From contig DATKOR010000045.1 in the NCBI GenBank assembly GCA_035524495.1, positions 2,862 through 66,861 of the forward strand: 64,000 bases of DNA, written 5' to 3'. The translations under genes were made by a program, and so were the position numbers. Below are positions 7,579 to 25,065 of the stretch, one piece after another. The stretch is from Steroidobacteraceae bacterium. GTDB taxonomy: Bacteria; Pseudomonadota; Gammaproteobacteria; Steroidobacterales; Steroidobacteraceae. Each line of letters begins with the position of its first letter. Position 1 is the stretch's first letter. The notes under the pieces were generated by a model. That model was not told where the DNA came from. It saw only the letters and a list, made by a program, of their open reading frames with translations, and did no database searches.

Positions 7579-8799
7579 ATGAAAGCAGCGATGCAGGTTA
7601 GGCAGATCAACGCAGCCGCTCCGCAGCGAGCTCTCGGCGCCGCGATCGTCGCGTCGGCGCTCGTGATGCTCTCGGCACTCGCGGCGCCGGCCCTCGCCGG
7701 GTCGCGCGAGCAGGCGATGCGCATGCACGACCGCCTGAACGGTTCGCCACCGACGCAGGCCGTGCTCGACTCGATGCAGGCGCAGATCGACGGCGGCAAC
7801 GCCAAGGGTGCCGCGCTGCTCGCGATCGACGACCCGAACGGCAACTTCTACTCGGTCGTGCTGAAGAACTTCGCGATGCCGTGGACGAACCGCGACCAGA
7901 CCGCGTTCGCCCCGCTCAACGACTACGTCGCGACCGTCGTCGGCATGGTGCGCGACGAGGTGCCGTTCAACACGCTGCTGTCGGCCGACCTTATCTATGT
8001 GGGCAAGAGCGGGCTCGGACTGCCGGCCTACTCGAACACCGACAACAACCACTATGTGCAGATGGAGGCGCAGGCGCTGAATCTGCGCGACGTGCTGGTG
8101 GCGGCGCCGCAATCGGCGACGACCGGACTTCCGGCGGCAGCAACCGCCGGCGTGATCACGACCCGCGCCGCGGCTCGTGCCTTCTTCATCCTCGGCACCA
8201 ACCGCGCGATGTTCCGCTTCACGATGATCAATCACATGTGCACGGACCTGCAGCTCGTGATGGACATCACGCGTCCGACCGACCGCATCCGCCAGGACGT
8301 CAGCCGCAGCCCGGGCGGCGACAGCCGCGTGTTCCTGAACAACTGCGTCGGTTGCCACTCCGGCATGGACCCGATGGTGCAGGCGTTCGCCTTCTACGAC
8401 TACGTCGATAATACGACGACCGACAACGGCTCGCTGCAGTACACGCCGGGCACGGTCGTCGGCAAGTACTTCCACAACAACACGACGTTCGCCCCGGGCT
8501 ACATCACGCCCGACGATCACTGGGACAACCGCTGGCGGACGGGACAGAACTCGCTGATGGGCTGGGACTCGACGCAGCCCGGCTCCGGCAACGGCGCGAA
8601 GTCACTCGGGGCCGAGATCGGCGCCAGCGGCCAGTTTGCGCAGTGCCAGGTGACGAAAGTGTTTCAGGCGGTGTGCCTGCGCGCGCCTTCGGACGCGGCA
8701 GACCGCTCGCAGGTGGCCACGATGGTCGCGGACTTCAAGCAGGGCTACTCCTTGAAGAACGCGTTCGCTGAGGCCGCTGTGTACTGCATGGGCAATTGA
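7579..8799 (+). CDS. Secreted DUF1588-like protein with CxxCH motif
   Basis: 406 aa with signal peptide (…LSALAAPALAGS). CVGCHSGMDPM (nt 8344-8358 for CVGCH) matches the C-x-x-C-H-x-x-x-D-P signature I associate with DUF1588/PSD-type planctomycete domains. Confidence 0.75.
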   Translation: MKAAMQVRQINAAAPQRALGAAIVASALVMLSALAAPALAGSREQAMRMHDRLNGSPPTQAVLDSMQAQIDGGNAKGAALLAIDDPNGNFYSVVLKNFAMPWTNRDQTAFAPLNDYVATVVGMVRDEVPFNTLLSADLIYVGKSGLGLPAYSNTDNNHYVQMEAQALNLRDVLVAAPQSATTGLPAAATAGVITTRAAARAFFILGTNRAMFRFTMINHMCTDLQLVMDITRPTDRIRQDVSRSPGGDSRVFLNNCVGCHSGMDPMVQAFAFYDYVDNTTTDNGSLQYTPGTVVGKYFHNNTTFAPGYITPDDHWDNRWRTGQNSLMGWDSTQPGSGNGAKSLGAEIGASGQFAQCQVTKVFQAVCLRAPSDAADRSQVATMVADFKQGYSLKNAFAEAAVYCMGN

Positions 8800-8812
8800 G
8801 GGAGTATCGACC

Positions 8813-11341: not shown

Positions 11342-11363
11342 CGGAACCATCGAGGCAACTATC

Positions 11364-12977
11364 ATGATCATCCGGAACAAACCGCCGCGGACTCTGAAGC
11401 TCGACGAGCCGATCCTTCACCGCGAGGCGCACAAGCGGCCGGTCACCCGGCGCGACTTCATCGCCCAGGGCCTGATGACCGGCTCGGCGACCGTGATCGC
11501 GCCGGCCGCGCTCGGTCTGCTGCTCAACCCGCGTCGCGCGATGGCGCTCGACTCGGACATCCTGGCGCAGAAGATCGCGTGCGGCATCACCGGCGGCGCC
11601 GGCAAGATCCCGTTCATCTGCTTCGACCTCAACGGCGGCGGCAACATCGCCGGCTCGAACGTGCTGGTCGGGGGTACCGGTGGTCAGCAGGACTTCCTGA
11701 CGACCGCGGCCTACGCCAAGATGGGCTTGCCGGGCAGCATGGTCCCGAACGCGTCGGCGACGGGCAACTTCATCGAGAACCGCCTCGGCCTCCTGTTCCA
11801 CTCCGACAGCGCGCACGTGCGCGGCATTCTCGAGCGCACCGCGCCGTCGACACAGGCGTTCACGAACGGCGTCGTGCTGCCGGCCCTGTCGAACAACGAT
11901 ACCAACACCAACCCGCACAACCCGATGTACGGCATCGCCAAGGTCGGTGCCAAGGGTGAACTGCTGACGCTGATCGGCTCGCAGGCCTCGACCTCGGGCG
12001 GCAATTCGATGGCGCCGCTATCGATGGTCGACCCGACGCTGACGCCGACGGTCGTCAATCAGGCGAGCAACGTCACCGGCCTCGTCGATACGGGCGTCCT
12101 CGGGCAGCTGTTCTCGAACCCGGCCGACGCGGTCTCGGTGCTCGAGTCGATGTCGCGGATCAGCGGCCAGAAGTTCGGCAACGTCTCGACGCAGCTCGCC
12201 ACCGACGCGTCGGTCAAGGCGGCAGCCAACTGCAACTACGTGAAGTCCGCCTACCTCGCCGAGAACTTCTCGAGCCCGGCGGCGTTGAACCCGGACCTCG
12301 ATCCGGTGATCGTCGACCAGAGCTCGACCCGCGGCACTGGCATCTTCAGCCAGGCCGAGTACCAGGGCGACAACGAGTTCCAGAAGACGGCGGCGATCAT
12401 GAAGATGGTCGTCAACGGCTATGCCGGCGCTGGCACGATCTCGATGGGCGGCTTCGACTACCACGGCCAGGGCCGCTCCACCGGCGAGCTGCGCGACCTG
12501 CGCGCGGGCCGCTGCATCGGTGCGTGCCTCGAGTACGCGGCGCGGATGCAGAAGCCGCTGATGATCTACGTGTTCAGCGACGGCGGCATCTCGGCCAACG
12601 GCCAGGTCGACACCTCGGTCGACGGCCGCAACAAGTTCATGTGGAGCAGCGACAACGAGTCGGTCGCCTCGACCTACTTCCTCGTCTACAACCCGACCGG
12701 GCGCCCGCAGCTGCTCGACGGCGCCGGCGGCCTGCCGGCGGCCCGCCACCAGCAGATCGGCGCCTTCACGCCGGACGGCTCGGTGAACGCGGCCTCGAGC
12801 CCGGCGGCCAGCAACGTGCTGCTGCTCGTTCAGACGGTGCTGCTCAACTACATGGCGCTGCACGGCCAGCAGGCGCAGTTCCCGCAGCTGTTCCCGGACC
12901 AGGCGCTCGGCAGCGGGTCGGCGCTCGATGCGCTGACGGCGTTCGCGCCGATCGTCAACGGCAAGATCGGCGGCTAA
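11364..12977 (+). CDS. Tat-exported DUF1501/DUF1552-like protein (alkaline-phosphatase/sulfatase-fold-like)
   Basis: Trimmed to MIIRNKPP…, 537 aa. Twin-arginine motif TRRDFIAQGL. Motifs FICFDLNGGGNIAGSNV and ISMGGFDYHGQG resemble the DUF1501 signatures (…GG.DG.N…, GGWDTH). Confidence 0.75.
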   Translation: MIIRNKPPRTLKLDEPILHREAHKRPVTRRDFIAQGLMTGSATVIAPAALGLLLNPRRAMALDSDILAQKIACGITGGAGKIPFICFDLNGGGNIAGSNVLVGGTGGQQDFLTTAAYAKMGLPGSMVPNASATGNFIENRLGLLFHSDSAHVRGILERTAPSTQAFTNGVVLPALSNNDTNTNPHNPMYGIAKVGAKGELLTLIGSQASTSGGNSMAPLSMVDPTLTPTVVNQASNVTGLVDTGVLGQLFSNPADAVSVLESMSRISGQKFGNVSTQLATDASVKAAANCNYVKSAYLAENFSSPAALNPDLDPVIVDQSSTRGTGIFSQAEYQGDNEFQKTAAIMKMVVNGYAGAGTISMGGFDYHGQGRSTGELRDLRAGRCIGACLEYAARMQKPLMIYVFSDGGISANGQVDTSVDGRNKFMWSSDNESVASTYFLVYNPTGRPQLLDGAGGLPAARHQQIGAFTPDGSVNAASSPAASNVLLLVQTVLLNYMALHGQQAQFPQLFPDQALGSGSALDALTAFAPIVNGKIGG

Positions 12978-13051
12978 CCCCGCGCGGCCCGGGCCGGCAC
13001 CGGATGGCCGGCACGGCTGCGCGCTTTCGCCGCTTCCGGCATGCTGTGCCC

Positions 13052-14416
13052 ATGCCAGGCCCGGGCCTCCTGGAGCTTCTGCAATGCCCGCGCTGCCGTC
13101 GCGCGGCGCTCGCCGCCACCGGTGCGCGCCTCGCGTGCGGCACCTGCAGGCTCGAGTTCCCGACGCTCGGGTCGATCCCCTGGCTGTTCGCGCAGCCTGA
13201 CGCGACGCTCGGCGAGTGGCGCAACCGCCTGACGCTCTACCTCGAAGAATTCTCCGCCGCCGAGCGCGCGGCCGCGGCCGACCTCGCGAGCGCGACGCGG
13301 CCCGCGACCCGCGCGCGGCTGCAGCGGCTCGGCGCGGCGTATCGCGAGCAGGGCGAGCGCGTGCGTGCGCTGCTCGCGCCGCTGCGCGTCGCGCCCGGCC
13401 CGCTCGCGCAGGCCACGCAGGTCGCGCTCGGTACGCATGTGCCGCTGACCCAGGACCTGCACTCCTACTATGCGAACCTGCATCGCGACTGGTGCTGGGG
13501 CGAGGAGGAGAACGCCGCGGCACTCGCCGAGGTCGGGACGGCACTCGGGGACGGCCGGGAGCGCGTCCTCGTGCTGGGTGCCGGCGGCGGCCGCCTCGCC
13601 TACGACCTGCACCAGGCGAGCCGCCGGCCGCTCACGGTCGCGCTCGACATCAACCCGCTGCTGCTGCTGGTCGCCGAGCGGGTCAGCCGGGGCGAGCGCG
13701 TCACGCTGTTTGAGTTCCCGATCGCACCGCGCACCGAGGCCGACGTCGCGCTGCCCCGCGAGCTCGCGGCGCCGGCGCCCGCACGTGCGGGCCTCGAGTT
13801 CGTGTTCGCCGACGCGTGGCGGGCGCCATTCGCGCCGCAGAGCTTCGATGCGGTGGTCACGCCGTGGCTCATCGACATCGTCGACCTGGACTTCGAATCG
13901 GTGGCGCTCGCGGTGAACCGGCTGCTGGTTCCGGGCGGGCGCTGGGTCAACTTCGGCTCGCTCGCGTTCCCGTGGCGCCGTCCGGAACGCCGCTACGGAC
14001 CGGACGAGGTGCGCGCGATCGTCACCGACGCGGGGTTTGAAGTCGGCCTGCAGCGCGATGCGACGCTGCCCTACATGCGCTCGCCCGCGAGCCGCCACGG
14101 ACGGCTCGAGACCGTGGCGCTGTTCGCCGCCGACAAGCGCCGCCGTGGCCCGCGCGATCCAGCCGAGGACGCTGGCCCACCCTGGCTCGCCGACACGACG
14201 CTCGCCGTGCCAAGGACCGAGGCGCTCGCGCTCGCCGCCGATGCCAGCCGCATACAGGCGGTGCTGCTCGCGCTGGTCGACGGGCAGCGCTCCGTCGACG
14301 ACCTGGTTCGCATCGTGAGCGAGCAGGGCTTGCTGCCGGCACCGCAAGCGCTGAGCGCGGTGCGCGGCCTGCTCGAGCGCCTGCATCGCACCGGCGCGAG
14401 GCTCGATCACACGTGA
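13052..14416 (+). CDS. Zn-ribbon (Trm112-like) / class I SAM-dependent methyltransferase / C-terminal PqqD-like domain fusion
   Basis: Trimmed to MPGPGLLELLQCPRCRR…CGTC (4-Cys ribbon), 454 aa. SAM motif I: VLVLGAGGGRLAYDL. Post-I/II motifs: ALDINP…, VVTPWLIDIV, LLVPGGRWVNFG (N2227-like layout). C-terminus AVLLALVDGQRSVDDLVRIVSEQG…LLERL resembles PqqD/RRE winged helix. Confidence 0.75.
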   Translation: MPGPGLLELLQCPRCRRAALAATGARLACGTCRLEFPTLGSIPWLFAQPDATLGEWRNRLTLYLEEFSAAERAAAADLASATRPATRARLQRLGAAYREQGERVRALLAPLRVAPGPLAQATQVALGTHVPLTQDLHSYYANLHRDWCWGEEENAAALAEVGTALGDGRERVLVLGAGGGRLAYDLHQASRRPLTVALDINPLLLLVAERVSRGERVTLFEFPIAPRTEADVALPRELAAPAPARAGLEFVFADAWRAPFAPQSFDAVVTPWLIDIVDLDFESVALAVNRLLVPGGRWVNFGSLAFPWRRPERRYGPDEVRAIVTDAGFEVGLQRDATLPYMRSPASRHGRLETVALFAADKRRRGPRDPAEDAGPPWLADTTLAVPRTEALALAADASRIQAVLLALVDGQRSVDDLVRIVSEQGLLPAPQALSAVRGLLERLHRTGARLDHT

Positions 14417-14741
14417 CGCGCCTCACGCCGCAAGCCGCGCGGTGCGCCGCGGCCTGTCGCTATCCGGCGACTCGATTTGGGCCCAAACCGCGGTCCAGCG
14501 TTTTTGTGAAGCGTCCAACACTCTGCGTCGAAGCTGCGCGTTGACACTGTGGGGCCTGCGTGCGAGCTTTACAGAATCTGCCAAGGGCAAACTCGTCGCG
14601 AGGCGAGGACGCAAAGCTACCGGTCCGTGACAACGCGGATAGCGGGGTTGCCGCGGGTGGCCGTGTCCGTTTTGCGGCGGCCTGCGCGACGCTCGCCAAC
14701 GGTCGCTCGCGACGCGGGCGCGCTGCCCTCGGCTCGGTGAC

Positions 14742-15317
14742 ATGGAGTTCGTGGCGACGGTGGTGCGGCGGCTCGCTCTATTGAACGTCCGGGTGCGGCG
14801 CAGTGCGGCGAGTGCCGCGCTGGCGATCGTGCTCGCCGGCGTTTCATCGTCGGCGCCGGCCGCCGACGCCGGTGCGCGCCACCCGTTGATCGGCAAGCCG
14901 GCACCGGAGATCGTGCAGCGCCTGTTCGCGGGACCGGGCCGGAACTTCCGCCTGTCCGAGCGCCGTGGTGAGGTCGTCGCGATCGGTTTCTGGACCAGCT
15001 GGTGCGGGTCGTGCCGCACGTATCTTGAGCGGCTCGCCAAGCTCGATGCGACCTACGGCCAGGCCGGTCTCGTCGTCGTCGGGATCAGCCTCGATGACGA
15101 TGCTGCAAGGGCCACGGCGCTCGCCCGCGCGGTCGGCACCAAGTTTCGCACCGGCGTCGACACGGAAAAGTCCGCCGGCAAGCGCTTCGCGGTGCCGGAC
15201 GTGCCGCTGACGCTTTTGATTGACCGCAGCGGCGTCGTGCGCTACGCGCATGGCGAGCTCGACGCCGCGTCCGATGCCGATCTCGTCAAAGAGATTCGGC
15301 AGCTGCTCGACGAATAG
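14742..15317 (+). CDS. TlpA-like periplasmic thioredoxin (second copy)
   Basis: 191 aa with active site WTSWCGSCR and the VPLTLLIDRSG block. An alternative GTG start at 14793 gives a cleaner signal peptide (VRRSAASAALAIVLAGVSSSAPA). Confidence 0.85.
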   Translation: MEFVATVVRRLALLNVRVRRSAASAALAIVLAGVSSSAPAADAGARHPLIGKPAPEIVQRLFAGPGRNFRLSERRGEVVAIGFWTSWCGSCRTYLERLAKLDATYGQAGLVVVGISLDDDAARATALARAVGTKFRTGVDTEKSAGKRFAVPDVPLTLLIDRSGVVRYAHGELDAASDADLVKEIRQLLDE

Positions 15318-15463
15318 GAACACCCGGAGTACGCGATGGACAGTCCACGTATAGCGCTCGCGATGCTCGACTGCGGCAGGGGTTCGCGACGCCGTGGTGC
15401 CCGGCGCAAGGCCTTGGCACTGCCGCGCTGGCTGTTGTGGATCACCGGAGCGCGCTCGCGCGC

Positions 15464-16096
15464 ATGACCAGAAAGGCCCGGACGATGCTCACCTACACCC
15501 GATTCTCCCAGTGGCTGCGTGCCCTCGCGGCCTGCAGCGTGCTCGCGCTCGGTGCGCCGGCGTACGCCGCCGACTCCGCGCCAGCGGCGGCGCCGGCGGC
15601 CGCTGCCGCGACGGAGCCCGCGGCCGCGCCGGCGACGACCGGCGGCGACTTCAAGAGCCTCGATGGCGAGGTGCAGGGTCTCAAGAAGGAGGTGCTGGAC
15701 CTCAACCGCGACCTCTTCATGCTCGAGGAAGAGCTGCTGTTCCCGGCAAACACCCAGGTCGCGGTGTTCCTGTCGCTCGACGTCGGCACGTTCTTCGAGC
15801 TCGACTCGGTGCAGATCAAGCTCGACAACAAGGAGGTCGCGAACTACCTGTACACGGATCGCGAGGTCGAGGCGCTCAACCGCGGCGGCGTGCACCGGGT
15901 ATTCATCGGCAACCTCAAGACCGGCAAGCACGAGCTCGTGGCGTTCTTCACCGGCAAGGGACCGCACGAGCGCGACTACAAGCGCGGCGCCAACATGACC
16001 TTCGAGAAGGGCGTGGGCGCGAAGTACCTCGAGCTCAAGATCTCCGACCGCCAGAGCGCCCAGCAGCCCGAGTTCAAGGTCAAGGAGTGGGAGTGA
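15464..16096 (+). CDS. Secreted coiled-coil protein of unknown function (first gene of the TPR/ExbBD/TonB operon)
   Basis: About 210 aa from MTRKARTMLTYTRF…. Signal peptide …VLALGAPAYA, Ala/Pro-rich linker, heptad-like segment LDGEVQGLKKEVLDLNRDLFMLEEEL, then a beta-rich C-terminal domain. Its stop overlaps the next gene's GTG. Confidence 0.7.
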   Translation: MTRKARTMLTYTRFSQWLRALAACSVLALGAPAYAADSAPAAAPAAAAATEPAAAPATTGGDFKSLDGEVQGLKKEVLDLNRDLFMLEEELLFPANTQVAVFLSLDVGTFFELDSVQIKLDNKEVANYLYTDREVEALNRGGVHRVFIGNLKTGKHELVAFFTGKGPHERDYKRGANMTFEKGVGAKYLELKISDRQSAQQPEFKVKEWE

Positions 16097-18033
16097 GCCG
16101 AGGCGGCATCACGAGCGGCGCGCGCGCGTGTGCGTGCCTGCTGGCGCTGGCGTTCAGCGCCGGCGTGGCCGCGCCGAAGGCGACGCCGACACCGGGGGCG
16201 CTGCCTCCGGTCAAGGTCCGTGACCTCTATTACGGCGATGTGCTCTATTACTTCTACCAGGACGACTATTTCACGGCGCTGACCCACCTGACCGCCGCGC
16301 AGCAGCTCGGGCGCGTGTCGCACCACGAGGGTGATGCGCAGCTGCTTCTCGGGGGCCTGTACCTCTCGCTCGGGCAGCATCGCGAGGCCGGCCAGATCTT
16401 CGCCGAGGTGTTGGACCGCAAGAACGTGCCGCAGCCGGTGCGCGACCGCGCGCGGTTCTTCCTCGGCAAGGTGTGGTACCAGCGCGGCTACTTCGACAAG
16501 GCCGCCGACACGCTCGCGGCGGCGGGCAGGGCGGGCCTGTCGCCGGCGATGGAGGCCGAGCGCCGGATGCTGCTCGCCCAGGCGCTGCTGTACCAGGGCA
16601 AGTATCCCGAGGCGATTGCCGCGCTCGAGAACTGGAAGGGCCCGGTGATGTGGCAGGCCTACGCCAAGTTCAACCTGGGCGTCGCGTTCGTGCGCAACGG
16701 CCAGCTCGACCAGGGCGCGCACCTGCTCGACGAGATCGGCCGGCTCGAGCGCACCAACCGCGAGCTCGACGCGCTGCGTGACAAAGCGAACCTGGCGCTC
16801 GGCTACGCGCTGCTGCAGGCCAAGAAGCCCGTCGAGGCGCGCCCGGTGCTCGAGCGCGTGCGGCTGGACGGACCGCTGTCGACCAAGGCGCTGCTCGGCG
16901 TCGGCTGGGCCTCGAGCGATGCGCAGCAGTACCGCGACGCGCTGGTGCCGTGGCTCGAACTGCACGGGCGCGGCATGCTCGATTCGGCAGTCCAGGAGAG
17001 CTACCTCGCGGTCCCGTACGCCTACGGCAAGCTCAACGCCAACCGCCAGGCCGCCGAGTACTACGAGACGGCGATCCGCGAATTCGGAGCCGAGACCGGG
17101 CGCCTCGACGAATCGATCGCGGCGATCCGGCGCGGCGGCATGCTCGAGACGATCGTCAAGAACGAGTCGCGCAGCCAGCTTGGCTGGTTCTGGCAGCTCT
17201 CGACGCTGCCGGATGCGCCCGAGTCACGCTACCTCTATCACCTGCTCGCCCAGAACGACTTCCAGGAAGGCCTGAAGAACTTCCGAATGCTGCGCTACAT
17301 GGAGCGCAACCTCGATGGCTGGTCGACCAGCGTGGAAGCCTTCGACGACATGCTCGCCACACGCCGCGAGCGCTACGATACGCGCCTGCCGGCGGTCCTC
17401 GCCAAGCTCAACGGCGTCGACCTCGAGGAGCTGCAGCGCCGGCGCACGGAGATCGAGTCGCAGGTCGTCAGCGCCGAGAACACCGGAGACGTTGCGGCGC
17501 TCGGCACGCCGCACGAGCGCGAGCTGTGGGCGCAGGTCGAGCAGATGGAGTCGGTGCTCGCGAACGCCGGCAATGACCCCGACCTCGACGATGCCCGCGA
17601 CAAGCTGCGGCTGGCGCGCGGCGTCCTCTACTGGGAGATGAACGACGGCTTCAAGGCCCGCGCCTGGGCCGTGAGGAAGGGCGTGCGCGAGGTCTCGCAG
17701 GCGCTGCGCGAGACCGAGAAGCGCTGGTCGCTGGTTCAGGAGGCGAAGCAGGCCGTTCCGGACCGCAACGGCGAGTTCGGCGCGCGGATCGCCTCGCTGC
17801 GCCCGCGCATCGAAGGGGCGCGCGACCGGCTCGCGGCGCTTGAGCGCGCGCAGGCCGACTACCTGGCCGACATCGCGGTGCGCGAGCTCGAGTCGCAGAA
17901 GGAGCGCATCGCGACCTACATGCTGCAGGCGCGTTACTCGCTCGCGACGATCTATGACCGCGCGACGCAGGACCTCGATGCCAAGCGCGGCCCGGCGCCG
18001 CAAGCGCCGACGCCGCCCCAGGGCACGCAATGA
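16093..18033 (+). CDS. Tetratricopeptide-repeat (TPR) protein with coiled-coil C-terminal half
   Basis: GTG start in a GTGA overlap with the upstream stop, about 646 aa. Signal-like N-terminus (ACACLLALAFSAGVAAP). Repeated TPR-like A/Y/L patterns, then long charged helices. The upstream part of track ORF 15394.. is out of frame with the real upstream gene and Arg-rich. Confidence 0.75.
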   Translation: MSRGGITSGARACACLLALAFSAGVAAPKATPTPGALPPVKVRDLYYGDVLYYFYQDDYFTALTHLTAAQQLGRVSHHEGDAQLLLGGLYLSLGQHREAGQIFAEVLDRKNVPQPVRDRARFFLGKVWYQRGYFDKAADTLAAAGRAGLSPAMEAERRMLLAQALLYQGKYPEAIAALENWKGPVMWQAYAKFNLGVAFVRNGQLDQGAHLLDEIGRLERTNRELDALRDKANLALGYALLQAKKPVEARPVLERVRLDGPLSTKALLGVGWASSDAQQYRDALVPWLELHGRGMLDSAVQESYLAVPYAYGKLNANRQAAEYYETAIREFGAETGRLDESIAAIRRGGMLETIVKNESRSQLGWFWQLSTLPDAPESRYLYHLLAQNDFQEGLKNFRMLRYMERNLDGWSTSVEAFDDMLATRRERYDTRLPAVLAKLNGVDLEELQRRRTEIESQVVSAENTGDVAALGTPHERELWAQVEQMESVLANAGNDPDLDDARDKLRLARGVLYWEMNDGFKARAWAVRKGVREVSQALRETEKRWSLVQEAKQAVPDRNGEFGARIASLRPRIEGARDRLAALERAQADYLADIAVRELESQKERIATYMLQARYSLATIYDRATQDLDAKRGPAPQAPTPPQGTQ

Positions 18034-21000
18034 GACGCGCGGCCCCCGCAATCATCCTGTGGCTCTGCACCGGCCTGCTGGCCGCGGGCGTCGCCGTGGC
18101 TGCGGCGCCGAAGAAACAGCCGACGATTGCCGACCTCAAGGGCAAGACGGTCGACGTCACGCCCGACGAGCCGACCGACGCCAACTCCGACAAGGCGCGG
18201 CAGAACTACCAGGAATTCCTCAACCTCGAGCGCGGCGACGCGGCGCTGCGCGCCGAGGCGATGCGCCGGCTCGGCGACCTCAAGCTCGAGGCCGGCGAGC
18301 TGAACCGCATCGAGAAGGAGCTGGTGTCGGGCTCGCCGCTCGACACGTCGGACGCGATCGTCCTGTACACGAAGCTGCTCGCCGCGTACCCGAACTACGA
18401 GCGCAACGACGCGGTGCTCTACCAGCTGGCGCGCGCCTACGAGGCCGACCAGCAGAGCGACAAGGCGCTCGGCACGCTCGATCAGCTGGTGCGCCGCTAC
18501 CCCTCGAGTCGCTACATCGACGAGGCGCAGTTCCGCCGCGGCGAGATCATGTTCGTCGACAAGCGCTGGGCGGACGCCGAGGCGGCCTATGCGCACGTGA
18601 TGAAGTTCGGTTCCAAGTCCGAGTTCTACGAGCAAAGCCTGTACAAGCATGGCTGGTCGCTGTTCAAGCGCGGCGAGTCCGAGGGGGCGCTCGACTCGTT
18701 CGCGAAGCTGCTCGACATCAAGCTCATCGACCCGCAGGGCAAGGAGCGCGACCTCGAGGGCTTCACGCGGCCGCAGCGCGAGCTCGTCGAGGACACGCTG
18801 CGGGTGTGCGCGATCACCTTCTCCTTCGACGAGGACGCGAAGGGCGTCGATGCTTTCCTGAAGCGCCACGGGTCCAAGCCCTACGCCTATTTGCTGTACG
18901 GGACGCTCGGCGACCTGTACGTCAGCAAGGAGCGCTGGACCGACGCGGCGGACGCCTACCGCGCGTTCGCCAAGCGCGAGCCGGATCACGAGCACGCGCC
19001 GCTCCTGCAGATGCAGGCGATCGACGCCTACAAGCGCGGAGGATTTGCGAGCCTGGTGCTCGACGGCAAGCGCGAGTACGTCGAGCGCTACCAGCTCGGC
19101 TCCCCGTTCTGGGCGCATCGCCAGCCGGCCGATGCGCCGCTGGTCGTGCGCGAGCTCAAGACCAACGTCAAGGACCTCGCCGCCTACTATCACTCGCAGG
19201 CCCAGACCTCGAAGCAGACGGCGGACTACCAGGAGGCGGCGCACTGGTACCGCGTGTACCTGCAGTCGTTCCCGGACGACAAGGACGCCGCGAACACCAA
19301 CTACCTGCTGGCCGACACGCTGTTCGAGAGCCACCAGTTCCACGACGCCGCGCTCGAGTACGAGCACAGCGCCTACGGCTACCCGCCGAACGACAAGTCG
19401 GCGACCGCCGGCTACGCGGCGCTCGTGTCCTACGAGAAGCACGAGCCGACGCTGCAGGGCGAGGCGCGCAGCGCCTGGCACCGCCAGGGCCTCGAGAGCG
19501 GGCTGCGGTTCGCGACGACGTTCCAGAGCCATCCGGAGAGCGCGCCGGTGCTGGTGCGCACCGCGCGCGAGTACTACGACCTCAAGGAATACGCGAAGGC
19601 GATCGATGTCGCCGACATCGCGCTCGCACGCCAGCCGCCGATCGACGTCGAGAAGCAGCGCACCGTGTGGACCGTCATTGCCAACGGCCAGTTCGAGCTC
19701 GGTCAATTCGACAAGGCCGAGGGCGCCTACCTGCAGGTGCAGTCTCTGCTCGCGGCCAACGATCCGCAGCGGCCGGTGATCGACGAGCGCATCGCGGCCT
19801 CCGTGTACAAGCAGGGCGAGGCGCGCAAGGCGGCCGGCGACGAGGCCGGCGCGGTCGGCGATTTCCTACGGATTGCGCAGCTTGCGCCGCACTCGAAGAT
19901 CCGCGCCAGCGCCGACTACGACGCCGCGGCGCTGCTGATCGGGCTCAAGGACTGGCCGAAGGCGATCGAGGTGCTGGAGGGCTACCGGCGGAACTTCCCG
20001 ACGAGCGAGCTGCAGCCCGAAGTGACGCGCAAGCTCGCCGTCGCCTACGTCGAGGCCGGCCGGCCGGGACCGGCTGCGGTCGAGTTCGAGCGCATCGCAT
20101 CGGCGCCCGGCGGCAGCGTCGACGTGCAGCGCGAGGCGCTCGTCCAGGCGGCGACGCTTTACGAGAAGTCCGGCGACACCGCGAAGACCGTCGCGTCCTG
20201 GGAAAGCTACGTCAAGCGCTTCCCGCAACCCTTCGAGCCGGCGATGGAGGCCCGCCAAAAGCTCGCCGACCTGGCGCAGCAGCGCGGCGATGCAGCGCGC
20301 CGCGCGGCGCTGCTCGACGAGATCATCCGCGCCGACCAAGGCGCGGGCGCAGCGCGCACTGACCGCAGCCGCTACCTCGCCGCCAAGGCCTCGCTCGAGC
20401 TTGCGATGCCGACGCGCGAGGCGTTCAATGCGGTGCGACTGGTGCTGCCGCTCAAGAAGTCCCTTGAGGCCAAGCGCGCTGCGCTGCAGCGTGCGCTGAA
20501 GTCCTTCGAGGCGGCGGACGCCTACGCGATCGCCGAGGTCTCTACCGCCGCGACCTTCGAGATGGCCGAGCTCTACCGTCAGCTCAGCGTCGACCTCCTG
20601 AAGTCGGAGCGCCCGAAGAGCCTGACCGACGAGGCGCTCGAGCAGTACAACCTGCTGCTCGAGGAGCAGGCCTACCCGTTCGAAGAGAAGGCCATCGAGA
20701 TCCACCTCGTGAACACCGCGCGCGCAGCGCAGGGCCTGTACAACGAGCCGGTGCGCGCGAGCTTCGCGGCGCTCGCCAAGCTCAAGCCCGCGCGCTTCGC
20801 CAAGACCGAACAGAACGAGGATCTCGTGATCGACGCCGCGGCGGGTGCCCCGCCGCCCGAGCCGCCGGCGCCCGCCGTGCCGGCCAAGGCGCCGGCCAGC
20901 AATGCGAAGAGTGCGCCGCCGCCGGCCAACGCGGTGCCGCTGCAGCTCGCGGTTCGCTTCCAGGAGGCGGTCGCCGCAGCCGATCGCGGCGGCGAGGCGC

Positions 21001-21440
21001 AGGCGGATGCCGAGTTCGTCGCGTTGACGAGCGGCGCCCCGACGCTCGCCGGGCCGCCGCTCAACCACGGCATCCTGCTGAGCCGCGCCCAGCACTGGCC
21101 CGAGGCGGCGGACGCGCTCGGCGAGGCGCTCAGGCGCCATCCGGGCTGCGCGACCGCGGCGGCGCAGCTCGGCGTCGTCTACCGCCAGCTCGGCAAGTTC
21201 AGCGACGCCGAGCAGTCGTACCGCAAGGCCCTCGAGTCCGACGCGAACGACGCGCGCACACACCGCAATTTCGGCGTGCTGCTCGACCTGTACGTGCAGA
21301 AGCCTGCCGAAGCGCTTGCCGAGTACGAGCGCTCGCTGGCGCTGGCCGGCGGCGAGGACAAGCAGATGTCGGCCTGGATCGCCGAGCTGCGCCAGCGGCT
21401 CGGGGCGGGCCAGAAGAGCGCCCGCGCGGAGGCCCAATGA
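18030..21440 (+). CDS. Giant TPR-repeat protein (1136 aa), exported
   Basis: ATGA overlap with the upstream gene. Signal peptide (IILWLCTGLLAAGVAVAAAP). Many TPR/BamD/CpoB-like repeats along the entire length. Confidence 0.85.
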   Translation: MRRAAPAIILWLCTGLLAAGVAVAAAPKKQPTIADLKGKTVDVTPDEPTDANSDKARQNYQEFLNLERGDAALRAEAMRRLGDLKLEAGELNRIEKELVSGSPLDTSDAIVLYTKLLAAYPNYERNDAVLYQLARAYEADQQSDKALGTLDQLVRRYPSSRYIDEAQFRRGEIMFVDKRWADAEAAYAHVMKFGSKSEFYEQSLYKHGWSLFKRGESEGALDSFAKLLDIKLIDPQGKERDLEGFTRPQRELVEDTLRVCAITFSFDEDAKGVDAFLKRHGSKPYAYLLYGTLGDLYVSKERWTDAADAYRAFAKREPDHEHAPLLQMQAIDAYKRGGFASLVLDGKREYVERYQLGSPFWAHRQPADAPLVVRELKTNVKDLAAYYHSQAQTSKQTADYQEAAHWYRVYLQSFPDDKDAANTNYLLADTLFESHQFHDAALEYEHSAYGYPPNDKSATAGYAALVSYEKHEPTLQGEARSAWHRQGLESGLRFATTFQSHPESAPVLVRTAREYYDLKEYAKAIDVADIALARQPPIDVEKQRTVWTVIANGQFELGQFDKAEGAYLQVQSLLAANDPQRPVIDERIAASVYKQGEARKAAGDEAGAVGDFLRIAQLAPHSKIRASADYDAAALLIGLKDWPKAIEVLEGYRRNFPTSELQPEVTRKLAVAYVEAGRPGPAAVEFERIASAPGGSVDVQREALVQAATLYEKSGDTAKTVASWESYVKRFPQPFEPAMEARQKLADLAQQRGDAARRAALLDEIIRADQGAGAARTDRSRYLAAKASLELAMPTREAFNAVRLVLPLKKSLEAKRAALQRALKSFEAADAYAIAEVSTAATFEMAELYRQLSVDLLKSERPKSLTDEALEQYNLLLEEQAYPFEEKAIEIHLVNTARAAQGLYNEPVRASFAALAKLKPARFAKTEQNEDLVIDAAAGAPPPEPPAPAVPAKAPASNAKSAPPPANAVPLQLAVRFQEAVAAADRGGEAQADAEFVALTSGAPTLAGPPLNHGILLSRAQHWPEAADALGEALRRHPGCATAAAQLGVVYRQLGKFSDAEQSYRKALESDANDARTHRNFGVLLDLYVQKPAEALAEYERSLALAGGEDKQMSAWIAELRQRLGAGQKSARAEAQ

Positions 21441-21922
21441 GCAAGAGATGGCTGACGATGTTCGCCGCGCTCGGCACCACCGCCGTATTGGGGGTCGCCT
21501 CGGCCGAGGATCCGCCGAGCGCCGGGCGCGCCGCCCGCGCGGCCTCGCCCGAGGTCCAGCAGGCTGAGCCGGCGGTCAAGGCGCCGCCCGCCACCCCGAA
21601 GCCGCGCAAGGCGTCCGCGAAGGCCGATGCCGCGCCCGGCGAAAAGACCGCGAAGGCCATCGACCGCCTCGAGCTCGAGACGACCCAGATCACCGGCAAC
21701 CGCGAGCTGCCGAAGGTCATGGTGATCGTTCCCTGGAAGCGCTCGGATATCGGCGACCTCGTCGGCCGCCCGGTGAACAGCCTGGTCGACGAGGCGCTGC
21801 AGCCGGTCGACCGGGAGGTGTTCCGGCGCGAGATCGACTACTTCGACGCGCTGGCCCCGGACCGGGCCCGAAGCGAGACGCGCGTCACAGGCGGGACTCC
21901 GGGATCCCGGCCTGAGAAGTGA
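21437..21922 (+). CDS. Small secreted protein of unknown function
   Basis: 161 aa with ATGA overlap with the upstream TPR gene. Signal peptide (MFAALGTTAVLGVASA), Ala/Pro/Lys-rich linker, and a conserved-looking C-terminal half (LPKVMVIVPWKR…). Confidence 0.65.
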   Translation: MSKRWLTMFAALGTTAVLGVASAEDPPSAGRAARAASPEVQQAEPAVKAPPATPKPRKASAKADAAPGEKTAKAIDRLELETTQITGNRELPKVMVIVPWKRSDIGDLVGRPVNSLVDEALQPVDREVFRREIDYFDALAPDRARSETRVTGGTPGSRPEK

Positions 21923-22003
21923 ACCACGGTATTCGTAACATAAGTTGAGTGAAATGGACCGGCCAAGCCGGCAAACCTCGTCGAATCGAACGGAGCAGCG
22001 GAG

Positions 22004-22708
22004 ATGCATGCCTACGACGTGATCGTGAACTTCTTCAAGCAGGGAGGCTTCTTCCTGTACCCGATCGCCCTGATCTGGGCGATCGGCCTGGTGATCGCCA
22101 TCGAGCGGTTCGCCTACCTCATGAAGGTCGGGACCGGCAACAAGCGCCTGTGGGACCAGCTGCAGCCGCTGTTCGAGGCCGGCAACTTCAAGCAGGCGAC
22201 CAACGCCGTCTCCGACTCGGACACCGCGCTCGCACAGGTCATGCGCTACGGCATGAGCCGCATCACGACCGCGCGGCGCCGCGAGGACATCGAGAAGGCA
22301 ATGGAGGAGAGCCTGGTCGAGGTGATCCCGCACCTCGAGCGGCGCACCCACTACCTCGCCGCGCTCGCCAACATCGGCATGCTGATGGGCCTGTTCGGTA
22401 CCGTGCTCGGCCTGATCAACGCCTTCGCCGCGGTCGCCCAGGCGAACCCGGCCGAGAAGGCGAGCCTGCTGTCGGCGAGCATCTCGGTGGCGATGAACAA
22501 CACGGCACTCGGCCTGCTGGTCGCGATCACGCTGCTGCTGTCGCACCTGTATCTCGAGACCAAGACGACCAACATCGTCGACAGCCTCGAGGTCGCGAGC
22601 GTGAAGTTCTTGAACGCCCTGTCCGAGCGCCAGCAGCGCGCCGAGGCGCCCGCGACTGCCGCGAGCGCGGCACCGCGCGGCGGTGAGGTGCGCGGGGCGA
22701 GGGCATGA
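22004..22708 (+). CDS. exbB: MotA/TolQ/ExbB-family proton channel
   Basis: 234 aa with three TM segments and the signature LANIGMLMGLFGTVLGLINAF … MNNTALGLLVAI. Confidence 0.9.
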   Translation: MHAYDVIVNFFKQGGFFLYPIALIWAIGLVIAIERFAYLMKVGTGNKRLWDQLQPLFEAGNFKQATNAVSDSDTALAQVMRYGMSRITTARRREDIEKAMEESLVEVIPHLERRTHYLAALANIGMLMGLFGTVLGLINAFAAVAQANPAEKASLLSASISVAMNNTALGLLVAITLLLSHLYLETKTTNIVDSLEVASVKFLNALSERQQRAEAPATAASAAPRGGEVRGARA

Positions 22709-23214
22709 GCGGATCCTCGATAGCCCGCCGCCAGGCGCGCAACCATGCGCGCTACAAGGGTCGGAACGATATCAACATCGTTCCGATGCTCGACATTTTC
22801 ACGATCCTCGTGTTCTTCCTGATCTTCACGGCCGTGTTCTCGAAGACCCACATCGTCGAGATGAATCTGCCGGCCCAGAGTTCCGAGCCCCTGTCGCTGC
22901 CCGAGGGGCTCGTGCTCGAGATCGTGGTGCGCAAGGACGGTCTGGTGGTGCAGGACAAGAACTCGGGGCCCCTGCAGCCGTTCCCGAACAACGAGCAGGG
23001 CTACGACTTCGACGGCCTCAACTCGTACCTGACCCGCGTCAAGGCCCGCTTCCCGGAGCTCAAGTCCGCGACGGTGCTGCTCGAGCAGAACATCCCGTAT
23101 GACACGATCATCGCGACGATGGACGCGGTGAAGTCCTACGAGGGCACGCTCGACGGCCAGCCGGCGCGCGGCGAACTGTTCCCGCAGATCTCGCTCGGAG
23201 ATGCGCCGACATGA
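22705..23214 (+). CDS. exbD: ExbD/TolR-family protein (copy 1)
   Basis: 169 aa with ATGA overlap with exbB. INIVPMLDIFTILVFFLI contains the conserved TM Asp. Confidence 0.9.
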   Translation: MSGSSIARRQARNHARYKGRNDINIVPMLDIFTILVFFLIFTAVFSKTHIVEMNLPAQSSEPLSLPEGLVLEIVVRKDGLVVQDKNSGPLQPFPNNEQGYDFDGLNSYLTRVKARFPELKSATVLLEQNIPYDTIIATMDAVKSYEGTLDGQPARGELFPQISLGDAPT

Positions 23215-23726
23215 TTGCCTCGCGCCTGAAGCGCTACCGCAAGTCCGGCGGCCACCACAGTGGTCACGGCATGCCGGCGCTCATCCCGATGATCGACATG
23301 CTCGTGATCCTGGTCGTGTACATGCTGATTCACACGGCCGACTACGAGATCCTGCCGAACACCAAGAACATCTCGATCCCGCAGTCGATCTCCGAGTCGC
23401 GCCCGCGGGAGTCGACGGTGCTGATGGTCACGCGCGACATGATCTTCGTAAACGGCAACGCGACCGCCTCGGTCGCGGACATCGACGCCGACGTGCCGGC
23501 GGCGCGCGATTCACTGCAGGCGAGCCTGAAGGCGGAGACGCAGAAGCGCACGCAGTTGCGGCCCGACGACCCGACCGCCCGTGAGGTCACGGTGATGGCC
23601 GACAAGGGCCTGCCGTACAGCCTGCTGAAGAAGATCATGTTGGCGGCGACCGCGGCGGACATCGGCAAGATGTCGCTGGCGGTCATCGAGAAAGAGCGGG
23701 CCTACCACGGCCCGAACCCTGGCTGA
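23211..23726 (+). CDS. exbD: ExbD/TolR-family protein (copy 2)
   Basis: 171 aa with ATGA overlap with copy 1. ALIPMIDMLVILVVYML contains the conserved TM Asp. Confidence 0.9.
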   Translation: MIASRLKRYRKSGGHHSGHGMPALIPMIDMLVILVVYMLIHTADYEILPNTKNISIPQSISESRPRESTVLMVTRDMIFVNGNATASVADIDADVPAARDSLQASLKAETQKRTQLRPDDPTAREVTVMADKGLPYSLLKKIMLAATAADIGKMSLAVIEKERAYHGPNPG

Positions 23727-23747
23727 GTTTCGCCGAGCGAGCCCACG

Positions 23748-24662
23748 ATGACCGCGCTTTCGACCAATTATCGGATCTTCGAGCTTCCCTGGACGCCGAA
23801 CGACGACGAGGAGCGGCATTTTAAACGGCTGCTCACGATCGGCATCGTCATCTGGCTGATCATCGTCTTCGGCACGCAGCTGCTGCCGACGCCGGAGCGT
23901 CCGGCCGCACAGCCGCTGCCCGAGGAGGTCGTCAAGCTCGTGCTGCAGCCGCCGTTGCCGAAGCCGAAGCCCGTCGAGGAGAAGAAGCCGGAGCCCAAGC
24001 CGATCCCGAAGACGGTCGTGCCGCCTCCGCAGGTCGACAAGACCGAGCAGGCGCGCAAGAAGGCGCAGAAGGCGATGAACGCCGTCAAAGACGAGCTCGC
24101 CGACCTGCGCGCGGCGCTCAACACCGAGCAGCTCGCGAGCGCCAAGCCGCTCAAGGACAAGGTCGACGGCCCGGCGCGCGCCGAGCGCTCGCTGATCACG
24201 TCGAACCTGACGGGCGGCAGCGGCGGCATCAACACCGCGGCGCTCAGTTCCGGCTTCGGTGGCGGACCGGGCTCGCTGCACGGCCACTCGACGATGCAGG
24301 GCGTCCAGTCCTTCGCCGACGGCATCCGCAAGGACCACGCCGAGGCCAAGCGCACCGGCTCGAGCGGCAAGGCCTCGCGCAGCCGCGAAGAGATCGAAAT
24401 GGTGTTCGACCGCAACAAGGCGGCGATCTACGCGCTCTACAATCGCGCGCTGCGCGACAATCCGCAGCTGCAGGGCAAGGTCGTCGTGCAGCTGACGATC
24501 GCCCCGACCGGCGAGGTCACCGACTGCAAAGTGCTGTCGTCGGAGCTCAAGGACGAAGAGCTCGAGCGCAAGCTCGTGGCGCGGATCAAGATGTTCAAGT
24601 TCGACGACAAGGACGTCGAGCTGATCACGACGACGAAGCCGATCGACTTCTTCCCGGCCTGA
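23748..24662 (+). CDS. TonB-like energy transducer
   Basis: 304 aa with N-terminal TM anchor (LLTIGIVIWLIIVFG). Pro/Lys/Glu-rich spacer (PPLPKPKPVEEKKPEPKPIPK). C-terminal TonB/AgmX-type domain (GKVVVQLTIAPTGEVTDCKVLSS…). Confidence 0.85.
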   Translation: MTALSTNYRIFELPWTPNDDEERHFKRLLTIGIVIWLIIVFGTQLLPTPERPAAQPLPEEVVKLVLQPPLPKPKPVEEKKPEPKPIPKTVVPPPQVDKTEQARKKAQKAMNAVKDELADLRAALNTEQLASAKPLKDKVDGPARAERSLITSNLTGGSGGINTAALSSGFGGGPGSLHGHSTMQGVQSFADGIRKDHAEAKRTGSSGKASRSREEIEMVFDRNKAAIYALYNRALRDNPQLQGKVVVQLTIAPTGEVTDCKVLSSELKDEELERKLVARIKMFKFDDKDVELITTTKPIDFFPA

Positions 24663-24672
24663 ACGCCGCGAC

Positions 24673-25065
24673 GTGCTGGCGCGCTACTACGTCGCGCTGA
24701 AGACGCTGCACGTCGCGTCGGTCGCGCTCTCGATCGGGCTGTTCCTGTTCCGGGCCGGCCTCAGGATCGCGGGCTCGAGCCTGCTCGGCACGCGCGTGCT
24801 GCGCATCGCGCCGCATGTCATCGACACGGTGCTGCTCGCGAGCGCCGTGCTGCTGACGCTGATCCTGCACCAGTATCCGTTCGTCAACGACTGGCTGACC
24901 GCGAAGCTCGTCGCGCTCATTGCCTACGTCGTCCTCGGCTCGATCGCGCTGCGCCGCGGACGCACGCCGGCGGTCCGCGCAGTCGCGCTCGTCGCGGCGC
25001 TGCTGGCGGTCGGCTACATCCTCGGTACCGCGCTCCACCACGACGCCAACCCGCTGCGCTGGTGA
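24673..25065 (+). CDS. SirB2/YchQ-family small inner-membrane protein
   Basis: 130 aa with GTG start and four TM helices. The sequence pattern (YVALKTLHV…IDTVLL…LIAYVVLG) is typical of the SirB family. Confidence 0.7.
   Translation: MLARYYVALKTLHVASVALSIGLFLFRAGLRIAGSSLLGTRVLRIAPHVIDTVLLASAVLLTLILHQYPFVNDWLTAKLVALIAYVVLGSIALRRGRTPAVRAVALVAALLAVGYILGTALHHDANPLRW

Follow-up and report, generated by a model that had tools for sequence, protein, structure and literature searches.

A probable Steroidobacteraceae version of the Agl-Glt core complex preceded by a GEMM-I riboswitch

Background

The Agl-Glt gliding machine and the Nfs sporulation machine of Myxococcus have been proposed to derive from a smaller "core complex" that comprises the products of gltC, gltD, gltE, gltG, aglR, aglQ and aglS along with that of one extra gene, and whose own function is unknown (Luciano et al. 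2011, PMC3169522). The core complex is encoded in a single-region cluster in one betaproteobacterium, several gammaproteobacteria, Geobacter and Fibrobacter, for example, by Mpe_A1224-A1231 in Methylibium, Maqu_1595-1602 in Marinobacter and CJA_3313-3319 in Cellvibrio, and the published phylogenies put such clusters with AglRQS rather than with TolQR (PMC3169522). Here we analyze a stretch of 64,000 nucleotides (nt), hereinafter the window, from contig DATKOR010000045.1 of a Steroidobacteraceae bacterium (GCA_035524495.1), in which a block of nine genes at positions 14742-24662 very likely is a single operon-like unit representing the Steroidobacteraceae version of the core complex. In an earlier reading of this DNA (hereinafter, the original prediction), the block was presented as a TonB-type machine for which no functional description was known. 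The function is indeed still unknown in the literature, and our literature searches for a functional study of the core complex, or for the published locus tags of the gamma- and betaproteobacterial clusters, found none; the cluster type itself, however, was delineated in 2011 (PMC3169522). The machine is of a kind that is already known and named, and is functionally uncharacterized. The features that are new with respect to the published descriptions are the conserved core member p203, the GltD-GltE fusion, the asymmetry between aspartate and asparagine in the two ExbD-like subunits, a clade-specific thioredoxin and a GEMM-I riboswitch.

Results and discussion

A nine-gene block with the organization of the core complex

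The block consists of nine successive open reading frames (ORFs) on the plus strand, with the coordinates and order that were originally predicted, as confirmed by ORF listing and translation. Pfam and NCBIfam searches identified a TlpA/ResA/DsbE-like thioredoxin, two tetratricopeptide repeat (TPR) proteins, a MotA_ExbB protein, two ExbD proteins and a TonB-family C-terminal domain among the products. Five 4-nt start/stop overlaps, GTGA at 16093 and ATGA at 18030, 21437, 22705 and 23211, had been claimed, and all five are exact. The window has a G+C content of ~70%, and its nearest relatives are metagenome-assembled genomes (MAGs) of Steroidobacteraceae.

The match of the TonB-like protein to the AgmX/PglI C-terminal domain above the cutoff, together with partial matches to the GltG and GltJ models, led us to consider the core complex of Luciano et al. 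2011. Table S3 of PMC3169522 gives 550-692 amino acids (aa) for GltC, 933-1016 aa for GltD, 162-263 aa for GltE, 205-272 aa for AglR, 168-188 aa for AglQ, 162-185 aa for AglS and 321-334 aa for GltG. The corresponding proteins in the window have 646 aa (GltC), 1136 aa (GltD with GltE fused to it, ~940 + ~190), 234 aa (AglR), 169 aa (AglQ), 171 aa (AglS) and 304 aa (GltG), with GltE contained inside the 1136-aa protein. The position between the gltE and aglR homologs corresponds to a locus tag that is skipped, with no size listed, in Table S3 (PMC3169522) and is occupied in the window by a gene for a 161-aa protein (p161).

Direct comparison with other clusters yielded a consistent picture. In two betaproteobacterial clusters, from a Piscinibacter contig (L083) and from a longer betaproteobacterial contig (L084), the genes encode, in this order, a 173-aa protein, a 628-aa TPR protein, a 1096-aa TPR protein, a 199/225-aa lipoprotein, a 101/102-aa protein, ExbB, two ExbD proteins and a 503/507-aa protein, and every protein of the block except for the thioredoxin matches its positional counterpart in these clusters. 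The Piscinibacter representative of ExbB is 44% identical to the window protein; Piscinibacter is close to Methylibium, the betaproteobacterial genus on the 2011 list. A cluster from a deltaproteobacterial MAG (L085; 42% G+C) has the same architecture, including a fused 1136-aa TPR protein, and matches most components of the block; a blastp comparison of the GltC-like and p161 proteins with this cluster gave no match.

Scanning one genome per species for close relatives of the ExbB-like protein yielded 80 loci, which belong to Steroidobacteraceae, Woeseiaceae, Nevskiaceae, Lentisalinibacter, Povalibacter and unclassified Gammaproteobacteria. In 63 of these 80 loci, the complete set of nine genes is found, collinear and on the same strand, which shows that the TPR genes and the genes for the small secreted proteins are co-conserved with the motor genes; most of the others are contigs that end inside or just upstream of the block, and in two loci (L026 and L027) only the thioredoxin gene is missing. 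A further contig with an independent gene call (L082) displays the identical gene order. The median identity is the highest for p203 (68%), with 62% for the ExbB-like protein; public data contain over 8000 close relatives of the latter. The 4-nt overlap of the ExbB and ExbD1 genes is kept in 55% of the loci and that of the ExbD1 and ExbD2 genes in 86%, with start codons picked heuristically. A tblastn search of 72,556 plasmids with p203 and the GltD-like part as queries detected no plasmid copies.

An AglRQS-type motor and a GltG-like transducer

The gene at 22004-22708 (on the plus strand, as are all the genes of the block) encodes a 234-aa proton-channel subunit of the MotA/TolQ/ExbB family (PF01618, 91.9 bits). 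In an exhaustive HMMER search that found 11,475 ExbB-like homologs, 106 of them at E <=1e-30, an AglR-like protein from Anaeromyxobacteraceae fell within the best 106 (132.6 bits and 36% identity in phmmer; 35% and 128 bits in blastp). This protein is encoded by the first gene of a stand-alone MotA-ExbD-ExbD trio (L081) with products of 230, 165 and 190 aa, to be compared with 224-226, 162-164 and 194 aa for AglR, AglQ and AglS of Anaeromyxobacter (PMC3169522). The ExbB-like protein of the deltaproteobacterial cluster is closer still to the Anaeromyxobacteraceae protein (42%, 172 bits). The window protein shows 44-45% identity to those of the betaproteobacterial clusters and scores only 33-36 bits against solved ExbB/TolQ structures.

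The two ExbD/TolR-like subunits, ExbD1 in the AglQ position (22705-23214; 169 aa; PF02472, 56.6 bits) and ExbD2 in the AglS position (23211-23726; 171 aa; PF02472, 51.5 bits), both contain the expected transmembrane (TM) aspartate, D30 and D29, respectively. The doubling of ExbD, which had been regarded as a peculiarity of this locus, corresponds to the AglQ/AglS pair: the best match of ExbD1 is always the first ExbD, and that of ExbD2 always the second ExbD, of the other clusters (L081 and L083-L085). The TM aspartate is present in all 76 ExbD2 orthologs; in ExbD1, this position is occupied by Asp in 63 and by Asn in 11 of 75 orthologs, and Asn is also found in the beta- and deltaproteobacterial clusters. 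Because the aspartate is invariant in one subunit and variable in the other, the ExbD pair points to an asymmetric heterodimer in which only one protonatable aspartate would be obligatory. Judging by scores and positional matches, the motor appears to group with AglR/AglQ/AglS and not with ExbBD or TolQR.

The last gene of the block (23748-24662) encodes a 304-aa TonB-family force transducer that, as read from the sequence, consists of a short cytoplasmic N-terminus, one TM helix, a Pro/Lys-rich spacer, a Gly/Ser-rich segment with a conserved motif, and a strongly conserved C-terminal domain that ends in TKPIDFFPA. The C-terminal domain belongs to the AgmX/PglI type (NF033768, 69.4 bits against a cutoff of 40) and is 47% identical, over 108 aa, to that of the 503/507-aa betaproteobacterial proteins; the GltG equivalog model (E 1.7e-12) and the GltJ model match the C-terminus only. 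A search of PDB sequences with the transducer gave no match. Across the orthologs, no conserved histidine of the kind found in the SHLS-type motif of TonB was detected in the TM helix, so the motor-contact motif of TonB and TolA is not kept; the consensus preceding the helix is E.RFRR, and H24 of the window protein is an arginine in most orthologs. The protein that had been labeled TonB is, then, a GltG-type transducer. By eye, an N-terminal stretch of the GltG-like protein in the deltaproteobacterial cluster looks FHA-like; an FHA domain is annotated in myxobacterial GltG, too.

These observations bear on the simplest alternative, namely that the block is an ordinary extra TonB-ExbB-ExbD energizer that serves receptors encoded elsewhere in the genome, with the TPR proteins as accessories similar to Vibrio TtpD. 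Such a system would contain precisely the MotA_ExbB, ExbD and TonB-family C-terminal domains that are present here (TIGR01352, 32.7 against a cutoff of 27.1), tonB genes need not adjoin receptor genes, and Steroidobacteraceae-type genomes do carry TonB-dependent receptors. However, the transducer lacks the conserved TM histidine, its C-terminal domain fits AgmX/PglI far better while missing the Pfam TonB_C cutoff (23.7 against 24.6), the channel protein is much closer to the AglR type than to ExbB, and two ExbD paralogs are co-conserved with ~1800 TPR residues in gamma-, beta- and deltaproteobacterial clusters. The genomic distribution of the receptors points in the same direction. In agreement with the original prediction, none was found among the larger window ORFs scanned. 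In the related loci, receptors (four representatives checked with Pfam and the others assigned by BLAST clustering) occur within the 10-kilobase (kb) flanks of only ~15 of ~65 loci, at distances that vary between 17 nt and 5.8 kb, in most cases on the strand opposite to the block and behind unrelated genes such as those for sulfite or nitrite reductase, with no fixed position, and are missing from most flanks; the clusters thus do not consistently adjoin a transporter gene. The block is not an orphan iron-uptake motor, and we regard this explanation as very improbable.

The TPR proteins and the GltD-GltE fusion

The gene at 16093-18033 encodes a 646-aa periplasmic protein that is GltC-like by its TPR families (Pfam), size and position, in agreement with the homologs of MXAN_2541 in Table S3 of PMC3169522, and is 33% identical over 633 aa (E 3e-99) to the 628-aa protein in the matching position of L084. 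The following 1136-aa protein had been described simply as a giant TPR protein, but turned out to be composite. Its residues ~1-935, which together with a Pro/Ala-rich linker are encoded at 18030-20925, form a GltD-like part with several YbgF/CpoB-type TPR units (TIGR02795 tol_pal_ybgF, 108-110 bits against a cutoff of 90.1; CpoB model, 63 bits) that matches the proteins in the GltD position of L083 and L084 (43% over 837 aa, 631-638 bits) and, at a greater distance, that of the deltaproteobacterial cluster (22% over 967 aa, E 1.6e-34). Residues ~996-1136 (21015-21440), fused to the C-terminus of the GltD-like part, comprise a GltE-like TPR module, for which L083 and L084 encode stand-alone counterparts of 199/225 aa (33-36% identity, E ~1e-15) with the lipobox LQGC; the NCBIfam GltE model NF033758 matches this module weakly (E 3e-7, below the cutoff). 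About half of the related loci have, in place of the 1136-aa protein, one ORF of ~945 aa and another of ~220 aa, and a pattern search detected a lipobox in 16 of 18 of the latter, with a Gly-Cys found by eye in one more. Given that the split relatives encode a separate GltE-like lipoprotein, the 1136-aa protein of the window is, on sequence grounds, a fusion of GltD-like and GltE-like proteins that appears to have lost the GltE lipid anchor. No GltC or GltD model was matched by the TPR proteins in NCBIfam at E values up to 10.

The YbgF/CpoB-type units raise the possibility that the block is a further Tol-Pal-like system that tethers the outer membrane or serves division, in which these units of the 1136-aa protein would act as CpoB. 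Apart from the above-cutoff YbgF match, this idea draws on the TolQ and TolR models being the best NCBIfam matches of the motor proteins and on the GltE-like proteins being lipoproteins in the split clusters. The equivalog scores, however, are far under the cutoffs (60.9 against 221 for TolQ and 41 against 127 for TolR), and neither the block nor the conserved part of its flanks encodes a TolB β-propeller, a Pal/OmpA-like protein or YbgC; no PD40/TolB, OmpA/Pal or thioesterase domain was found in the nine proteins or the immediate flanks. Considering also that the published phylogenies group such clusters with AglRQS and not with TolQR (PMC3169522), a Tol-Pal-like system appears to be a very improbable interpretation.

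A riboswitch at the 5' end of the operon

Upstream of the block, a GEMM-I aptamer of the cyclic di-GMP (c-di-GMP)-I clan, which was missed in the original prediction, occupies positions 14577-14656 of the plus strand and is separated by 86 nt from the ATG of the thioredoxin gene; it is a full-length match to Rfam RF03167 (c-di-GMP-I-GGC; 67.1 bits against a gathering score of 59, E 2.6e-14). In an alignment of 33 homologous leaders, 21 pairs are predicted, 5 of them with compensatory changes, and the covariation is located in the first hairpin of the aptamer. With a covariance model built from the aligned leaders, the aptamer was recovered in 38 of the 80 loci and in the additional contig L082, each time at the 5' end of the operon. 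In the two loci without the thioredoxin gene (L026 and L027), the riboswitch directly precedes the p203-like gene.

As in the GEMM-I/c-di-GMP-I riboswitches (RF01051 and RF03167), the element is full-length, with the two-hairpin architecture and the tetraloop. The window and all aligned homologs carry CGCAAA where the RF03167 consensus has CGCGAA, that is, A in place of G, and share the conserved motifs GGCAAAC and ACGCAAAGC, of which GGCAAAC is invariant in all copies. The best-scoring model is canonical c-di-GMP-I (RF01051) for some orthologous leaders and the GGC variant for the window leader. Because CGCAAA and GGCAAAC can be read as the canonical ligand-contact nucleotides, c-di-GMP would be the likeliest ligand. 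The predicted ATG of the thioredoxin gene lies 0-10 nt from the 3' strand of the aptamer (..GCCAGGATG) in ~17 loci; this proximity suggests that, in such loci, the aptamer may control translation. The window leader contains a spacer with a weak terminator-like hairpin. No report of a riboswitch with core-complex genes downstream turned up, although no literature search was aimed at that question.

Two loci, L046 and L048, contain a second, complete-looking core cluster in tandem after the first one, running to the end of the locus, with a canonical c-di-GMP-I riboswitch (RF01051, ~80 bits) before its p203-like gene (12921-13007 in L046 and 12928-13015 in L048). The tandem cluster is closer to the betaproteobacterial type, with 45-57% identity to the proteins of L084, and contains apparent frameshifts that suggest assembly errors. 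Given that the riboswitch leads this paralogous cluster as well as the p203-like genes that lack an adjacent thioredoxin gene, the predicted element goes with the core-complex operon itself, in both paralogous lineages, and not with the thioredoxin alone. The window also encodes a dCache-HAMP-GGDEF-EAL protein, a c-di-GMP turnover enzyme, on the minus strand (46344-48848), 22 kb downstream of the block, which shows that the organism, as predicted from its gene content, uses c-di-GMP signaling.

Considering that c-di-GMP-type riboswitches often govern motility genes (PMC7266159) and that the block is homologous to the Agl-Glt core, it might be supposed that the carriers possess a complete gliding machine and glide like Myxococcus. 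We consider this extremely unlikely. The Group A genes gltA, gltB, gltF, gltH, gltI, gltJ and gltK, which Myxococcus requires for gliding, are described as limited to Myxococcales and Bdellovibrionales, and the core alone has been stated to be insufficient for motility (PMC3169522); in addition, Pfam and NCBIfam searches found nothing like the outer-membrane barrels or the giant GltI-like protein in the block.

Two conserved periplasmic proteins and a clade-specific thioredoxin

The second gene of the block encodes p203, a conserved periplasmic protein of no known family. The original prediction described it as a 219-aa secreted protein; the ORF, which begins at 15437, stands, but the start is most likely the ATG at 15485, which yields a 203-aa protein (15485-16096), and this 203-aa form (P0402) is the version present in the protein collection. 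Its signal peptide is followed by a variable Ala/Pro linker, a single long helix and a β-rich domain. It has at least 8000 homologs, and in the best 120 of these, the identity over the last ~150 residues is 85-99%. Similarity to the betaproteobacterial cluster is substantial (40% over 136 aa, E 1e-32), and there is a weak match in the deltaproteobacterial cluster (E 6e-7), so that p203 can be predicted to belong to the core in gamma- and betaproteobacterial clusters, with a weak match in the deltaproteobacterial one. An AlphaFold2 model derived from 41 homologs was too poor to interpret (predicted local distance difference test, pLDDT, of 52); a Foldseek comparison of this model with the PDB gave generic β-sandwich matches only (E >2e-3), and a profile search of PDB sequences brought up nothing beyond coiled-coil noise (haemagglutinin HA2, E >=0.05). 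Neither p203 nor p161 matches a Pfam or NCBIfam family.

The small periplasmic protein p161 (161 aa; 21437-21922), encoded between the GltE-like module and the AglR-like gene, has a signal peptide that is followed by a disordered linker and a core of ~65 aa with the motif DRL.LD.T.ITGNRELPKVM.IVPWK..., which was found in 71 of 81 orthologs. It is 33-36% identical over 58 aa (E 2e-10) to the 101/102-aa proteins in the matching position of L083 and L084. An AlphaFold2 model made without an alignment was uninformative (pLDDT 48). The start of the core, (D/E)xTxITGNRELPKV, resembles by eye the TonB boxes of receptors encoded in the same loci (LEEIVVTATRR, LETVTVVGKLP); hhalign comparison with the N-termini of 11 such receptors gave no support (probability 0.1%), and this visual resemblance should be taken as a hypothesis only. 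The 81-nt gap between the p161 and AglR-like genes (21923-22003) contains a small GC-rich hairpin (CCGGC CAA GCCGG). The spacer is not conserved, given that the two genes overlap by 4 nt in 29% of the related loci.

The first gene of the block (14742-15317) encodes a 191-aa TlpA/ResA/DsbE-like periplasmic thioredoxin with a WCGSC active-site motif, which matches Redoxin (59.9 bits) and AhpC-TSA (59.1 bits) as well as the DsbE, ResA and TlpA models. The CxxC motif is conserved in 94% of the orthologs, and the gene is located directly upstream of the p203 gene in 61-63 loci, Lentisalinibacter included. It is absent from the betaproteobacterial cluster L084 and the deltaproteobacterial cluster L085, and on this account the thioredoxin is, as far as gene content indicates, a clade-specific addition to the core complex. 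In a search for a disulfide substrate among the other proteins of the block, no conserved cysteine pair was found; the only conserved cysteine outside the thioredoxin is C260 of the transducer, in addition to a partly conserved position in ExbD2. We also considered assigning the thioredoxin to the upstream set of c-type heme and LamG genes and rejected this assignment because the gene stays with the block where those genes are absent and because the riboswitch precedes it.

Genomic neighborhood

The flanks of the block are only partly syntenic among the related loci. On the upstream side, a Tat-signal protein is encoded in 37 loci, a methyltransferase-like ORF is present in ~25 and a c-type-heme/LamG lipoprotein gene in at least 14, and on the downstream side, a PEP carboxylase gene is found in 27. 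In Lentisalinibacter, the upstream genes are quite different, yet the thioredoxin gene and the rest of the block are kept. The original prediction linked the machine to neighboring heme proteins; with synteny that is partial and the block of Lentisalinibacter following other genes, a functional requirement for these proteins is not supported.

In the window, three co-directional genes on the plus strand upstream of the block (7579-12977) look like a separate redox module. One encodes a secreted protein of 406 aa with the heme c motif CVGCH, another encodes a lipoprotein of 842 aa that combines CGACH and CSRCH motifs with a LamG domain, and the product of the third, of 563 aa, carries a twin-arginine signal and matches no Pfam family; the 842-aa and 563-aa proteins are syntenic with the block in some loci and absent in others. 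Between the heme genes and the riboswitch lies a methyltransferase-like ORF (CARME/Methyltransf_11; ~13216-14416, plus strand) that is also present in L082; a longer ORF of 630 aa called at 12524-14416 runs over the preceding gene in a different frame, and this overlap accounts for its N-terminal ~150 residues, which are artefactual. Downstream of the block, a gene for a SirB-family membrane protein (24673-25065, plus strand; PF04247, 129.5 bits) begins 10 nt past the stop codon of the GltG-like gene. Given that it occupies this position only in the closest relatives (L001, L002 and L005), it is probably not part of the system. In the betaproteobacterial cluster L084, the GltG-like gene is followed on the same strand by a gene (13301-13975) for a 224-aa PEP-CTERM (exosortase-sorted) protein; this single case could reflect either a link to the cell surface or a coincidence. 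Farther away in the window, on the minus strand, a 981-aa protein with a hydrazine-synthase-alpha-like middle domain (4413-7358; PF18582, 52.9 bits) and a DUF3570 protein (1015-2202; 143 bits) are encoded, for neither of which a link to the block was found.

A tentative model

Based on the predicted domain architectures and on the analogy with ExbBD, TolQR and AglRQS, we propose that the AglR-like protein and the ExbD1/ExbD2 heterodimer would form a proton-driven stator of the 5:2 type. The stator would energize the GltG-like protein, whose C-terminal domain might reach across the periplasm on the Pro-rich spacer to act on, or through, the TPR scaffold. In the split versions, the GltE-like lipoprotein would tie this scaffold to the outer membrane, and p203 and p161 would be obligatory partners of the machine. 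The machine is predicted to perform mechanical work in a process of the envelope or cell surface and not to open a TonB-dependent receptor; the handling of a surface polymer or protein is the most likely process, which we favor partly in view of the riboswitch control. Expression would be tuned by a cyclic dinucleotide, probably c-di-GMP, which would place the machine in a surface-lifestyle regulon. A more specific scheme can be outlined, in which the block would encode an as yet uncharacterized kind of periplasmic machine that is driven by protons and gated by a cyclic dinucleotide. In this scheme, p161 would be the protein on which the GltG-like transducer pulls, the TPR scaffold and p203 would couple the pull to the export or organization of a surface polymer or protein, which would be what the gliding motor did ancestrally, and the TlpA-like reductase would act on C260 of the transducer. 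As a whole, this scheme is speculative, and we rate it as unlikely, if less so than the alternatives discussed above.

Several points weigh against the interpretation of the block as a riboswitch-controlled core complex. TPR proteins cross-match many families, and the link of the TPR proteins of the block to myxobacterial GltC, GltD and GltE rests on the published analysis, the architecture and the beta- and deltaproteobacterial intermediates; the NCBIfam GltE and GltG equivalog models were matched weakly, partially and far below their cutoffs. About 40% of the loci lack the riboswitch, as do Woeseiaceae, Lentisalinibacter and the betaproteobacterial cluster (the covariance model found no match in L003, L004, L008, L024, Lentisalinibacter, Woeseia and the betaproteobacterial cluster), and hence it is not a general feature of the system. 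Rfam puts most copies in the variant class RF03167, and we know of no established ligand for the c-di-GMP-I-GGC variant. Finally, the mechanistic part of the model is inferential, given that neither a cargo nor a phenotype nor an outer-membrane component has been described for any core complex.

The core complex is widespread and has been viewed as the evolutionary seed of the gliding and spore-coat machines of Myxococcus (PMC3169522). With a GEMM-I riboswitch in front of the cluster in two paralogous lineages, regulation through a cyclic dinucleotide can be predicted, and a connection with the surface lifestyle is suggested; this is a first clue to the role of the machine. The parts list becomes fuller, with p203 and p161 as conserved core members and the thioredoxin as a clade-specific addition, and together with the riboswitch makes the function more directly testable. 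Natural variants further constrain the models, namely, fused GltD-GltE without an anchor as opposed to the split form with a lipoprotein, and Asp or Asn in ExbD1 as opposed to the invariant Asp in ExbD2. Cultured carriers exist, including Lentisalinibacter and relatives of Steroidobacter and Povalibacter, so that the predictions can be tested experimentally.

Comparison with known systems

The Vibrio TonB2-type clusters, with the composition TtpB-TtpC-ExbB2-ExbD2-TonB2-TtpD, serve TonB-dependent receptors. Compared with these, the block similarly bundles a Ton-like motor with TPR proteins and a coiled-coil periplasmic protein, but it lacks a large TtpC-type protein, includes two ExbD proteins instead of one, and has TPR proteins that are located upstream and are far larger. 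With the ExbB-ExbD-TonB and Tol-Pal systems in general, the block shares membership of the proton-driven motor superfamily and a single-pass Pro-rich transducer with a TonB-family C-terminal domain, and with Tol-Pal, additionally, the CpoB/YbgF-type TPR units, which here reside within the GltD-like protein. It differs from ExbB-ExbD-TonB and TolQR in possessing two non-identical ExbD/TolR paralogs and in lacking a conserved histidine in the TM helix of the transducer, and from ExbBD-TonB and Tol-Pal in the lack of a linked receptor, TolB or Pal and in the equivalog scores far below the cutoffs.

The likeness to the Agl-Glt and Agl-Nfs machines of Myxococcus encompasses the AglRQS-type motor with two different TolR-like subunits, a GltG protein with an AgmX/PglI C-terminal domain and large periplasmic TPR proteins. 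Unlike these machines, whose genes are distributed over three loci, the block is one operon, and it lacks the outer-membrane proteins GltA, GltB, GltH and GltK, as well as GltI, GltJ, GltF and the CglB adhesin; its GltG-like protein is devoid of the cytoplasmic domain that is annotated as FHA in myxobacterial GltG. With the published core complex, the block has in common the gene order, the protein sizes and the organization as a single co-directional cluster, which in the window includes the five 4-nt overlaps. The window differs in that GltD and GltE are fused, a thioredoxin gene comes first and a GEMM-I riboswitch lies in front, and, relative to the betaproteobacterial clusters, in the shortness of its GltG-like protein (304 as opposed to 503-507 aa). 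Finally, p203 is conserved upstream of GltC, whereas the original description of the core complex names only one additional gene.

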